Source: an uncultured Bacilli bacterium (GTDB lineage Bacteria > Bacillota_I > Bacilli_A > RF39 > UBA660). Taken from it: a stretch of 64,000 bases of DNA. This document shows positions 34,438 to 36,249 of this stretch, one piece after another. The position numbers were made by a program, and so were the translations under genes. The number at the start of each line of letters is the position of its first letter. The first letter of the stretch is position 1. The notes below the pieces were generated by a model. The model saw only the letters and a list, made by a program, of their open reading frames with translations, did not search any database and had not been told where the DNA came from. Where the stretch lies: positions 1,591-65,590 of the forward strand of contig CALVPR010000001.1 in assembly GCA_944351765.1 (NCBI GenBank). The letters run 5' to 3'.

Positions 34438-36249
34438 CTAACTATAAAATTCTTTAATACTTTTCAATAAATATTTATTTTCTTCTGAATTTTTTATTGC
34501 TATTCTAATATATTCACCATCAGAAAAACCGTTTTTTCCATTTAATACTTTTATTAAAATGTTTTTCTTTTCTAATAAAAACTCTGCTAATTCATTTGCT
34601 CGTCCATTTTTTAATTTACACATAAAATAATTTGCTTGAGACGTATAAACTTTTAGTTGGTTTATTTCACTTAATTCACTATAAAATCTCTTTCTTTCTG
34701 TTTTTATCATTTCACAAGCACTAATATAATCTTTTTTATATAAAGGTATTATTTGTAAAAAATACTCTCCAAATGAATTTATATTCCATACTGGTAAACT
34801 TTCTTTTAGAATTTTTATATATTCTTGATTACCGGTTGCTAAAATTCCCAATCTAAGTCCGGGAACACCATAAGACTTACTAATACTTTTAATAACAATT
34901 AAATTAGGATATTTATTAAGTATTTCATCGTCAATTAACGAATAACTATCGTTTGCAAAATCCATGAAAGACTCATCAAAAACAATTTGCTTATTGTTAT
35001 TTTTAGCATAATCTAATAAATCTATTATTTCGTCATAAGTCAAACAATCGCCACTAGGATTATCCGGAGATATTATTATTAAACTTTCTACATCGTTTAA
35101 CTTTTCTTTCATCTTATCAACATTCAATTGATAATCATCCAAATTTGTATATATATATTCTATTTGATTATTCGGGAAACATCTTACATATTCATTAAAA
35201 GATGGTATCGATAAACAAATTTTACCTTTTATGATATATTTTAGATTATTAATTAACTCTGCTGCGCCATTACCTATTAAAACATTATTTTCACTTACGT
35301 TATTAAACATTCTAGAAGCACATATAGTTTGTACTTTTTGACCTGATGGATAATTAATAAGAAGATCATTATAGAAATATTTCATTTTTTCTAACATTTG
35401 TGAAGTAGGAAAATATGGATTAACAAGATAACAATAATCTTTAAGATTATTAAATCTCCAATATCCACCAAATCGTTTATTAAATAATTTTAATTTTTCA
35501 GTAGTATTTTCAGCAAATAATGCCTTGGCTATATCTAAATCTTGTGCATCATCAATTTCATACCAAGTTTCATCCGATAGAACATATCCAAACAAATTAA
35601 CATCATTGAATCCTGTAATAACCTTTAAAACTAATTCATAATACTCATTATTTCCAAAAGATTTCATATACGACTCCAAAAATGGAACATAAAATCTTTC
35701 AGAAAACTTTCTATTAAACTTATAAATATTTACAGTTTTATAGTAACTATCTACTTTTTTATAATCAAAGTCTTTTTTTTCTATAAATTTTGTTATTATA
35801 TTGTTATCATCTAATTCTACTACTGTACCGTCCATCCATTGTTCATATTTAGCTAATACAGCTGCATTGTTATTATTATCATCAACTAAATTTTTAATAA
35901 TATTTTCATTGTATATAATATCAGATTCCAATAAAATAGTATCATCTTCAATAAGATAATTTCTTGCTAAATATAAAGAATAAATATTATTAGTACTTTC
36001 ATACATATCGTTATCAATATATATAATTTCTATCTTTTTATCTAACTTTTTATCTTTTATAAATTGCTTTACATTATTTTTTTTATATCCCAATACTAAA
36101 ATAATTTTTTTTATATTTGCCTTACACAATGCATCAATTGTTCTTTCTAATAACGTTTTACCGTTAATTTCTAACATACATTTTGTATTATCTTTTGTAT
36201 ATTTTCCTAATCTTGAGCCTTTTCCAGCTGCTAACATAACTGCTTGCAT
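34438..36249 (-). CDS. Bifunctional fusion: sugar/phospho-alcohol nucleotidyltransferase (LicC/IspD-like) + class I/II PLP aminotransferase/decarboxylase (HisC/CobD-like)
   Basis: N-term MQAVMLAAGKGSRLG (NTP-transferase G-loop); C-term IISPDNPSGD...KSISKSYGVPGLRLGIL (PLP-Lys region of HisC/CobD family); 603 aa. Confidence 0.65.
   Translation of the reverse strand: MQAVMLAAGKGSRLGKYTKDNTKCMLEINGKTLLERTIDALCKANIKKIILVLGYKKNNVKQFIKDKKLDKKIEIIYIDNDMYESTNNIYSLYLARNYLIEDDTILLESDIIYNENIIKNLVDDNNNNAAVLAKYEQWMDGTVVELDDNNIITKFIEKKDFDYKKVDSYYKTVNIYKFNRKFSERFYVPFLESYMKSFGNNEYYELVLKVITGFNDVNLFGYVLSDETWYEIDDAQDLDIAKALFAENTTEKLKLFNKRFGGYWRFNNLKDYCYLVNPYFPTSQMLEKMKYFYNDLLINYPSGQKVQTICASRMFNNVSENNVLIGNGAAELINNLKYIIKGKICLSIPSFNEYVRCFPNNQIEYIYTNLDDYQLNVDKMKEKLNDVESLIIISPDNPSGDCLTYDEIIDLLDYAKNNNKQIVFDESFMDFANDSYSLIDDEILNKYPNLIVIKSISKSYGVPGLRLGILATGNQEYIKILKESLPVWNINSFGEYFLQIIPLYKKDYISACEMIKTERKRFYSELSEINQLKVYTSQANYFMCKLKNGRANELAEFLLEKKNILIKVLNGKNGFSDGEYIRIAIKNSEENKYLLKSIKEFYS

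Follow-up and report, generated by a model that had tools for sequence, protein, structure and literature searches.

What does an enzyme that joins a nucleotidyltransferase (NT) to a pyridoxal phosphate (PLP)-dependent domain contribute to the glycopolymer locus that it leads? We asked this of a protein of 603 amino acids (aa) encoded in the window, as we call the whole 64-kb stretch of DNA from an uncultured Bacilli bacterium that was analyzed. Our leading answer, to which we give about an even chance, is that the protein makes a cytidine monophosphate (CMP)-activated 2-amino-alcohol phosphate in the cytoplasm, turning O-phospho-L-serine (Ser-P) into phosphoethanolamine (P-Etn) and P-Etn into cytidine diphosphate (CDP)-ethanolamine. 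The parts of this model that we infer are Ser-P as the substrate, decarboxylation, cytidine triphosphate (CTP), the PLP step coming first, and the transferase of the window locus.

A two-domain protein

The ORF list and the translation gave an intact open reading frame (ORF), from ATG to stop, at positions 34438-36249; it lies on the minus strand, which the first-pass annotation had not stated, and the plus-strand reading of the same interval is interrupted by many stops. Pfam placed NTP_transferase, NTP_transf_3 and IspD matches at aa 2 to 185 (E = 6e-15 to 1e-7) and Aminotran_1_2 at aa 318 to 598 (E = 7e-36), all above the gathering cutoffs. An AlphaFold2 (AF2) model, built with 33 homologues as input, is confident by its own scores (predicted local distance difference test, pLDDT, 89.8; predicted TM-score, pTM, 0.86). 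When it was searched against the PDB with Foldseek, the top match by E value was the whole chain of the PntC-AEPT fusion (6PD2, E = 1e-29), followed by SMUL_1544, a decarboxylase of Sulfurospirillum multivorans (6OUX, 30% identity), CobD (1LC5, TMt = 0.85, where TMt is the Foldseek TM-score normalized to the target), 3FTB, 3FKD and then the histidinol-phosphate aminotransferases. The first-pass annotation had called a single 603-aa protein with these two domains, and the Pfam matches and the AF2/Foldseek results agree with both calls: the PLP lysine (Lys458), the fold on modeling and the NT signature were all found, as were the two motifs that it had quoted, MLAAGKGSRLG (aa 5 to 15) and KSISKSYGVPGLRLG (aa 454 to 468).

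The gene is under purifying selection, since its ratio of nonsynonymous to synonymous substitution rates (dN/dS) is 0.12 against L034, 0.19 against L054 and 0.23 against L042 (loci that carry the fusion are numbered with an L). More than 130 positions, in both domains, are invariant in a family alignment of 42 full-length members with 43 to 99% identity to the window protein. The invariance of residues was judged in two alignments, of 42 and of 33 family members, and the window fusion retains every family-invariant residue.

The PLP domain

By sequence, the PLP domain is nearer to CobD-type decarboxylases than to HisC. Compared with PDB sequences, it scored 137 bits with SMUL_1544 (6oux, 30% identity), 132 with 3ftb, 94 with 3fkd and 90 with CobD (1lc5), versus 59 to 66 with the HisC structures. 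The structure search likewise ranked SMUL_1544 and the CobD-type decarboxylases above every HisC, with TMt values of 0.77 to 0.89 to fold-type-I relatives. Among the reference structures, SMUL_1544 is the only one to share with the family the fine motifs DxCYLxNPY, DESF, KSxSK and GEY.

In the alignments, the Schiff-base lysine of CobD (SLTKFY), SMUL_1544 and HisC falls on Lys458 (nucleotides 34876-34878). Asp425 is the conserved Asp of the D-E-A-F motif, which we take to pair with the PLP pyridine nitrogen; Asn397, the second Asn of the CobD/HisC N-P-x-N-P-x-G motif, presumably contacts PLP O3'; and Arg466 takes the place of the conserved Arg in the G-L-R-x-G motif (GLRLG in the fusion), which presumably binds the PLP phosphate. 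All four residues are family-invariant, and the same Lys/Asp/Asn/Arg set is common to SMUL_1544 and CobD.

Two other positions differ from the solved relatives. The family-specific Asp396 (35062-35064) stands where SMUL_1544, 3FTB, CobD and HisC have Asn, and Lys567, found in nearly all family members, stands where the same four have Arg; Arg582, its partner in a pair predicted to bind the substrate phosphate or carboxylate, is kept. The residues at these two positions in CobD, Arg323 and Arg337, are ones that we take to bind the substrate phosphate. Judged by the alignment, substrate binding at the Lys567 site differs from that in every solved relative, and Lys567 and Asp396 may mark a different substrate-binding mode.

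The NCBIfam hidden Markov models (HMMs) gave 163.8 bits for hisC (TIGR01141, cutoff 276.55) and 163.2 bits for CobD (TIGR01140, cutoff 290.55); because both scores are below their cutoffs, the fusion lies outside the curated CobD and HisC equivalogs. The HMM and modeling check that the first-pass annotation had proposed, aminotransferase versus decarboxylase, assigned a fold-type-I PLP domain and did not separate the two reaction types. The CobD-type decarboxylase that it had favored is backed by the bit scores (137 with SMUL_1544 and 90 with CobD), but the two HMMs tie, and sequence alone cannot separate a decarboxylase from a Cj1437-like aminotransferase of dihydroxyacetone phosphate (DHAP). 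We know of no sequence rule that tells decarboxylase from aminotransferase specificity.

The nucleotidyltransferase domain

The NT domain scored 55.9 bits with PF00483 (cutoff 21.2), 46.7 with PF12804 (cutoff 27) and 32.2 with PF01128 (cutoff 27). Its closest PDB sequences all belong to CTP-dependent enzymes, namely, Tde-PntC (6pd1, 55.6 bits), LicC (1jyk, 45 bits) and inositol-1-phosphate cytidylyltransferase (2xme). Gly9, Gly11, Arg13 and Lys23 of the fusion align with PntC Gly11, Gly13, Arg15 and Lys25 and are invariant in the family. Lys23 is the predicted catalytic lysine; the equivalent residues are K38 in FrbH and K27 in YgbP, and the signature lysine is essential in both enzymes (PMC6697681).

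PntC Glu104 is one of two glutamates that hydrogen-bond the primary amine of 2-aminoethylphosphonate (AEP) (PMC6697681), and it corresponds in the alignment to the invariant Glu108 of the fusion, within a high-confidence stretch in which Ser109 and Asp110 are invariant as well. The second, PntC Glu196, aligns to Tyr204, next to the invariant Glu205, in a stretch of low alignment confidence. P-Etn as the NT substrate is supported because the domain most resembles PntC, which acts on AEP, an isostere of P-Etn. From the nearest solved CTP enzymes, together with the TagF-like and LicD neighbors described below, we infer a CTP-dependent domain with a CDP- or CMP-linked product.

Neighboring genes and domain fusions across the family

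We called ORFs in 56 loci, clustered them and annotated the recurrent clusters. A TagF/TarF-like transferase was present in 32 of the 56 loci and LicD in 14, with at least one of the two types in 41; the remaining 15 are mostly short contigs. In 26 loci, we found a protein of 630 to 700 aa in which a YidC insertase domain precedes a C-terminal TagF/TarL-like domain. The signal of the latter is weak (Pfam, 28 bits; TarL, E = 0.02), and its tentative assignment as TagF-like is strengthened only by canonical TagF-like neighbors in other loci. An unnamed ORF of ~95 aa accompanies the YidC-TagF-like protein in nearly all 26 loci, an LtaS-like membrane protein of the alkaline phosphatase (AP) superfamily does so in most, and signal peptidase I (S26) does so in seven. 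This module (examples in Table 1) looks like a self-contained system that would build a phospho-amino-alcohol lipid intermediate, flip it and transfer it extracellularly; we came across no earlier account of a YidC-TagF fusion. The TagF-like protein stands alone in six other loci; one of these, L047, has a canonical TarF/TarB-like gene (Glyphos_transf, E = 8e-55) that stops 3 nt short of the fusion. Motif searches at the level of regular expressions found no TagD-like gene in any locus and, in the TagF-type loci, no second ORF with the tested G-x-G-x-R nucleotidyltransferase motif, which leaves the fusion as the obvious source of the donor for those transferases.

Rearranged family members carry further domains. 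P0376 joins a TagF-like (Glyphos_transf) domain to the family PLP domain, with the NT domain absent; P0406 has a glycosyltransferase family 4 (GT4) domain ahead of NT and PLP; and P0273, P0280, P0371 and P0381 are triple fusions of NT, PLP and a C-terminal S-adenosylmethionine methyltransferase. In the PDB, the methyltransferase domain of P0280 is most like plant phosphoethanolamine N-methyltransferases (5WP5, E = 4e-11; 5WP4, E = 2e-9), and 4KRG and 6WLF also match. P-Etn as the product is supported because some members are fused to a domain of this kind, and the triple fusions suggest that some bacteria make phosphocholine-type decorations de novo, without a need for choline.

Three other neighbors are plausible amine modifiers. 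A GNAT gene occurs in 17 loci, often overlapping the start of the fusion, and DltA-like adenylation enzymes with a TIGR03099 decarboxylase recur near it. An opine-dehydrogenase/ApbA/glycerol-3-phosphate-dehydrogenase-like NAD(P) enzyme follows the fusion directly in L047 (11803-12900), from a metagenome-assembled genome (MAG) labeled Tenericutes, and in the Prevotella MAG loci L032 (11779-12846) and L033 (11794-12825); it might N-carboxyalkylate an amine or supply or consume DHAP. Taken with the transferase neighbors and the domain fusions, these modifiers point to a CDP-activated phospho-alcohol with a free primary amine, destined for glycopolymers, as the product.

Proposed pathway and alternatives

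In the leading model, the C-terminal PLP domain would decarboxylate Ser-P to P-Etn, with the chemistry of SMUL_1544 and Cj1436, and the N-terminal LicC/PntC-like domain would join P-Etn and CTP into CDP-ethanolamine. A phosphotransferase would then put P-Etn on the lipid-linked repeat unit of a Wzx/Wzy-type, TagO/TagA-primed wall polymer, and the outcome would be a zwitterionic decoration with a free amine on the polymer of the downstream genes. The proposal in the first-pass annotation of a CDP-ethanolamine- or CDP-aminopropanol-like donor for decoration survives in this model and is in keeping with the TagF-like or LicD partners in 41 of 56 loci and with the methyltransferase fusions, but the window itself is without LicD. 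Ser-P decarboxylation by Cj1436 feeds capsule decoration (PMC11800397). LicD enzymes use CDP-choline and CDP-ethanolamine, and Mf1, of the LicD family, accepted CDP-ethanolamine in vitro (PMC11982090).

Several observations weigh against this model. The hisC and CobD HMMs tie far under their cutoffs, the Arg that Lys567 replaces is conserved in decarboxylases and HisC alike, and a DHAP aminotransferase, Cj1437 (compared by description only), exists in the same COG-level family. TagF-like proteins are the commonest partners, and enzymes of the TagF type are not known to use donors other than polyol phosphates (CDP-glycerol, CDP-ribitol), which fits serinol phosphate better than P-Etn. The fusion occurs in reduced-genome lineages (Saccharibacteria and RF39-like Bacilli) that possibly have no phosphoserine supply, and neither tblastn with L054 proteins nor HMMs built from the loci found LicD or TagF-like genes in the window. 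Glu108 is kept in the methyltransferase-fused members, so the NT substrate need not be phosphocholine. In L025, the fusion adjoins a phosphonate (Ppm/Ppd) cluster that is without a class-V AEP transaminase.

A different product would follow if the PLP domain were an aminotransferase of the Cj1437/HisC type, which would convert DHAP and glutamate to (S)-serinol phosphate; the NT domain would make CDP-serinol, the 2-amino analogue of CDP-glycerol, and TagF-like or LicD enzymes would add or polymerize serinol phosphate. We regard this as possible, though on the doubtful side. It would account for the TagF/TarF-like proteins as commonest neighbors, one of them 3 nt from the fusion and one fused to the PLP domain, and it is in line with the HMM tie and with the natural substrate of HisC, a DHAP derivative. 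DHAP is presumably at hand even in reduced genomes and a surer precursor there than Ser-P; PntC-AEPT is a precedent for fusing an NT to an aminotransferase; the LicD partner in L021 matches the Mf1 model only; and the L025 fusion sits beside Ppm, Ppd and Fe-alcohol dehydrogenase genes with no class-V AEP transaminase. Cj1437 makes serinol phosphate for the capsule (PMC11800397), and a serinol bis-phosphodiester occurs in the Mycoplasma fermentans glycolipid MfGL-II (PMC3403081). What favors CDP-ethanolamine over CDP-serinol is that decarboxylases outrank every HisC in sequence and structure, that the SMUL_1544-specific motifs are present in the family, and that some members are fused to a phosphoethanolamine-N-methyltransferase-like domain; in addition, we found no paper mentioning CDP-serinol, and the window is without a TagF-like gene. 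If CDP-serinol were the product, it would be an undescribed nucleotide-activated donor and would explain where serinol-phosphate phosphodiesters like the MfGL-II head group come from, and the TagF-like partners could give intrinsically zwitterionic, teichoic-acid-like serinol-phosphate polymers in many gut bacteria.

CDP-ethanolamine could also be reached in the opposite order, the NT domain cytidylylating phosphoserine to CDP-serine and the PLP domain then decarboxylating the CMP-linked amino acid. FrbH, the only fusion of an NT and a CobD-like domain known to have been characterized, is reported to cytidylylate first and then decarboxylate the CMP conjugate (Johannes et al., 2010). PMC6697681 describes cytidylyl transfer by FrbH to 2-amino-4-phosphonobutyrate. 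The Lys567 substitution, at the second phosphate-binding Arg of relatives that bind a free phosphate, could reflect a phosphodiester or pyrophosphate substrate, but the invariant acidic residues that line the NT pocket, Glu108 among them, would suit a cationic amine without a neighboring carboxylate, and we consider this order unlikely. Quite unlikely, too, is the CobD-like route from L-threonine-O-3-phosphate through (R)-1-amino-2-propanol phosphate to CDP-aminopropanol. The first-pass annotation had named threonine phosphate, now less likely than Ser-P as the substrate: CobD structures are good matches (90 to 94 bits; TMt, 0.85 to 0.89), but the nearest is the Ser-P-specific SMUL_1544, threonine phosphate is not a central metabolite, and the fused methyltransferase resembles phosphoethanolamine methyltransferases. 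Nor was a kinase-like family seen among the annotated recurrent neighbor clusters, although no dedicated search for a PduX or GHMP kinase was made.

A phosphonate product, CMP-AEP, made by transaminating phosphonoacetaldehyde or decarboxylating phosphonoalanine in a class-I/II analogue of PntC-AEPT, is very unlikely. PntC-AEPT is the best whole-chain structural match and PntC the best NT match, and L025 (4314-16140, from a Lawsonibacter sp. MAG) shows a suitable setting: the fusion is followed by a triple fusion of NTP_transf_3, CTP_transf_like and PEP mutase, an Fe-alcohol dehydrogenase and a phosphonopyruvate-decarboxylase-like thiamine pyrophosphate enzyme, and is preceded by sulfatase-like, ornithine-cyclodeaminase-like and methyltransferase proteins. 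The Ppm motif, however, was found in L025 only, 1 of the 56 loci, and EDKxxxxxNS has no occurrence in any frame of the whole 64-kb window. The first-pass annotation had discounted a phosphonate route for lack of a nearby Ppm gene, which holds for the window and not for the Ppm/Ppd neighborhood of L025, where a phosphonate role for the family member is conceivable. Scarcely credible, finally, is a housekeeping role in histidine or cobamide synthesis (for instance, as a CobY-CobD type fusion) apart from the glycopolymer: the HMMs for hisC and CobD do match, but with scores far below both curated cutoffs, no his or cob genes are among the annotated neighbors, and the glycopolymer context is consistent, down to direct fusions to GT4 and TagF-like domains.

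Family size and spread

The first-pass annotation had called the fusion uncommon, which our searches contradict. A search of 90%-identity clusters gave at least 8000 candidate proteins with each of two queries, and an exhaustive search of 50%-identity representatives gave 657 proteins with E values of at most 1e-30. The best 150 of these 657 are mostly near-full-length fusions of ~600 aa, down to ~29% identity, and the others among them are truncated fragments. A pattern-limited scan with one genome per species found the fusion in 53 species-level genomes from at least five phyla. Its hosts are RF39-like Bacilli and "Mycoplasma sp." MAGs, Clostridia, Oscillospiraceae, Lachnospiraceae, Erysipelotrichaceae, Saccharibacteria, Prevotella, Muribaculaceae, Treponema and one Solirubrobacterales MAG. 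Among cultured organisms, Prevotella merdae Marseille-P4119 has an orthologue (L038).

The sources give generic names, either [quoted passage not shown] or a COG-style string. That the fusion is uncharacterized, as the first-pass annotation also had it, appears to hold: a full-text literature search found no paper describing an NT fused to a CobD/HisC-like PLP domain in surface-polymer loci, and searches on CDP-serinol, CDP-aminopropanol, CDP-serine, phosphoserine decarboxylase and CDP-ethanolamine with LicD and decarboxylase found nothing relevant. Thousands of genes that now carry only the aminotransferase label could be annotated once the function of the fusion is established.

Comparison with known systems

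The fusion has the architecture of FrbH and, by analogy, that of PntC-AEPT, with parts from the LicC/PntC and CobD/HisC superfamilies. FrbH, from FR-900098 biosynthesis in Streptomyces rubellomurinus, likewise has, in one chain, a MobA/LicC-like cytidylyltransferase followed by a CobD-like PLP decarboxylase; the likeness is one of architecture only. FrbH is CTP-dependent, with its catalytic Lys in the G-x-G-x-R...K signature that the fusion also has (PMC6697681). Its substrate is a phosphonate (2-amino-4-phosphonobutyrate), and its pathway makes an antibiotic, whereas the fusion lies in wall glycopolymer loci and, in the window, without Ppm.

PntC-AEPT of Treponema denticola (Tde1415, 6PD1/6PD2) shares with the fusion the order of cytidylyltransferase and PLP domain, and its Glu104, one of the two glutamates that bind the amine, aligns with Glu108. 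It yields a CMP-activated 2-aminoethyl phosph(on)ate with which the cell surface is tailored. It is Ppm-linked, and its PLP part is a class-V AEP transaminase (PF00266) where the fusion has PF00155; the relative domain orientation differs as well, with a root mean square deviation of ~21 Å over the whole chain. The different PLP class and the absence of Ppm keep the fusion out of the PntC-AEPT group.

The closest solved relatives of the PLP domain, the L-Ser-O-phosphate decarboxylase SMUL_1544 (6OUX) and the L-Thr-O-3-phosphate decarboxylase CobD (1LC5), with 30% and 24% identity and TMt values of 0.77 to 0.85, are stand-alone enzymes of cobamide nucleotide-loop synthesis and, unlike the fusion, have Arg and Asn at the positions of Lys567 and Asp396. 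Compared by description, Cj1436 and Cj1437 of Campylobacter jejuni are also HisC/CobD-type PLP enzymes of a surface-polysaccharide locus, converting Ser-P to ethanolamine phosphate and, by transamination, DHAP to serinol phosphate (PMC11800397). They stand alone, and no cytidylylation follows: an ATP-dependent amidoligase couples their products to glucuronate, after which the phosphate is removed. The LicC/Lic pathway of Streptococcus pneumoniae (1JYK) and Mf1 share the logic of a CTP:phospho-amino-alcohol cytidylyltransferase that feeds a LicD-family phosphotransferase. The Lic pathway relies on choline import and phosphorylation by LicA, with no PLP step, whereas the fused PLP domain would make the amino-alcohol phosphate de novo.

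The P-Etn that decorates bacterial surfaces usually comes from phosphatidylethanolamine, and phosphocholine usually from choline taken up by the cell. A single fused enzyme that makes a nucleotide-activated donor de novo in the cytoplasm would, if true, follow a different logic. The family is abundant in the gut bacteria of humans and animals (RF39-like Bacilli, Oscillospiraceae, Lachnospiraceae, Prevotella, Saccharibacteria). Zwitterionic phospho-amino-alcohol groups on glycans are ligands for natural antibodies and should alter surface charge and hence resistance to cationic peptides. On surface glycans, such groups bind pentraxins, and SAP binding has been shown (PMC11982090).

The window locus and its relatives

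As the first-pass annotation had proposed, the fusion leads a glycopolymer locus, being the 5'-most gene of a co-directional minus-strand run from 36249 down to 16096 in which Wzx, GT2s, an O-antigen-ligase-like/GT4 protein, TagA, MnaA and a TagO-like protein lie downstream (Table 1). TagO, TagA and MnaA carry out the classical synthesis of the wall-teichoic-acid linkage unit, and this set with the Wzx/Wzy-like proteins points to a wall-linked heteropolysaccharide. Within the run, GT2, DUF2304, EamA-like and PMT_2 genes (20819-23542, minus strand) have the pattern of three-component extracytoplasmic glycosylation via a polyprenyl-phosphate sugar. Upstream of the fusion lie a 183-bp gap, an ORF for a membrane-anchored protein of 171 aa (36433-36948) and then iPGM. 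Promoter-like matches such as the one in the gap were not above chance in DNA of 23% GC (47 sites, versus 55 expected from shuffles). The window is that of a walled gut bacterium, because it carries MreC and a bile-salt hydrolase.

Table 1. Coordinates of the fusion gene, its motifs and its neighbors (window positions unless a locus is named)
Feature	Position	Strand	Basis or remark
Whole gene, bifunctional NT/PLP enzyme	34438-36249	-	Stop codon 34438-34440; ORF list, translation, two-domain Pfam match
N-terminal LicC/PntC-type (MobA-like) phospho-alcohol cytidylyltransferase domain, aa 1-245 (predicted)	35515-36249	-	Pfam PF00483, PF12804, PF01128
C-terminal fold-type-I PLP domain (class I/II aminotransferase fold, CobD/SMUL_1544/HisC-like), aa 256-603	34441-35484	-	Pfam PF00155, E 7e-36
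MLAAGKGSRLG, G-x-G-x-R nucleotide-binding signature, aa 5-15	36205-36237	-	Aligns to PntC LAGGLGSRL
Lys23, predicted catalytic lysine	36181-36183	-	PntC alignment (Lys25); family-invariant
LLESD, aa 106-110; E108, S109, D110 invariant	35920-35934	-	High-confidence stretch of phmmer alignment to PntC LLESD
SPDNPSG, with Asn397	35050-35070	-	Alignment; family-invariant
DESF, with Asp425	34966-34977	-	Alignment; family-invariant
KSISKSYGVPGLRLG, aa 454-468	34846-34890	-	Aligned to CobD SLTKFYAIPGLRLG, SMUL_1544 SLSKDFGIAGVRLG, HisC FSKRAGLAGLRVG
Predicted substrate phosphate/carboxylate-binding pair, Arg582 (34504-34506) and Lys567 (34549-34551)	34504-34551	-	Alignment
Shine-Dalgarno GAAGAGGTG (GAGGTG), 6 nt 5' of ATG	36256-36264	-	Direct sequence reading
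Promoter-like TTGATT-17-TACAAT with extended TG, in 183-bp gap upstream	36341-36369	-	Consensus match only
Wzx-type flippase (Polysacc_synt), next gene downstream of fusion	32877-34340	-	Pfam; syntenic with fusion in L001, L037, L048, L054-56
Sulfotransferase-like protein, 351 aa	31825-32880	-	Sulfotransfer_1 and Sulfotransfer_3, weak; PDB SULT matches E ~0.01; synteny
Sulfatase/AP-superfamily protein, 586 aa	30056-31816	-	Pfam and NCBIfam; PDB matches cover aa 375-583 only
Glycosyltransferase family 2 (GT2)	29110-30069	-	Pfam
GT2	28131-29099	-	Pfam
O-antigen-ligase-like + GT4	25633-28134	-	Pfam
Polysaccharide deacetylase	24324-25613	-	Pfam
TagA/WecG	23539-24261	-	Pfam
PMT_2 GT-C	22211-23542	-	Pfam
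GT2	21523-22251	-	Pfam
DUF2304	21177-21539	-	Pfam
EamA-like, small	20819-21202	-	Pfam
Polytopic membrane protein	19340-20776	-	Translation
UDP-GlcNAc 2-epimerase (MnaA)	18238-19347	-	Pfam
NAD epimerase	17227-18237	-	Pfam
TagO/WecA-type GT4	16096-17157	-	Pfam
YidC-TagF module, examples	L002 7123-13440; L004 5363-11803; L010 9637-15857; L012 6253-11833; L018 5403-11696; L024 5471-11785		~20 more loci

The AP-superfamily protein has, on inspection, no obvious N-terminal hydrophobic segment and no C/S-x-P-x-R (formylglycine) motif, and it is a candidate phosphotransferase or hydrolase. Because every locus of the window's lineage keeps LicD, a cytoplasmic AP-superfamily protein or both, we propose it, as a speculation, as the transferase of the window locus. 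The sulfotransferase-like protein is the most conserved partner in the lineage, with 79% identity to its counterpart in L054 versus 69% for the fusion; its GYMGSGSS and ERDPRD stretches resemble motifs that bind 3'-phosphoadenosine 5'-phosphosulfate (PAPS).

L001, from a MAG named "uncultured Bacilli bacterium," is a twin of the window, with a fusion gene 99% identical. L054 to L056, in which the fusion is ~70% identical, carry genes for an FtsK-like protein, a NAGPA-domain protein, an ABC transporter (substrate-binding protein, ATPase and double permease) and a 303-aa protein with helix-turn-helix (HTH) and NTP-transferase domains, all between iPGM and the fusion; an Acyl_transf_3 gene follows the fusion, and LicD separates the sulfotransferase-like gene from that of the AP-superfamily protein. 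When window positions 34341-36948 were compared with L054 3595-16341, the window, like L001, had none of these genes, whether lost or never present, and the fusion was intact.

We rejected two neighbors as components of the system. iPGM flanks the fusion in the window's lineage only and is 6 kb away from it in L054, which is plain synteny, and the ABC transporter beside the fusion in L054 to L056, which by gene order we take to be of the Mollicutes p37/p29/p69 type, is not present in the window. In L048 (CP091726.1, a complete "Bacilli bacterium" chromosome; 9900-17000), the fusion, LicD, sulfotransferase-like and AP-superfamily genes are only short ORF fragments, either from a frameshift-rich long-read assembly or from real pseudogenization.

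Elsewhere in the window, a choloylglycine (bile-salt) hydrolase family protein (1504-2478, minus strand, E = 5e-98) fits a gut origin. A DUF7192 protein overlaps a 587-aa AAA_5 (dynein-related/McrB-like) ATPase (53053-55762, minus strand), and the three ORFs without a Pfam match that adjoin this pair (50450-53099) may form with it a defense-type or mobile module. Two tandem paralogous calcineurin-like metallophosphoesterases, of 350 and 351 aa, lie at 46976-49128 on the minus strand, and a DHH-family protein follows at 49328-50320.

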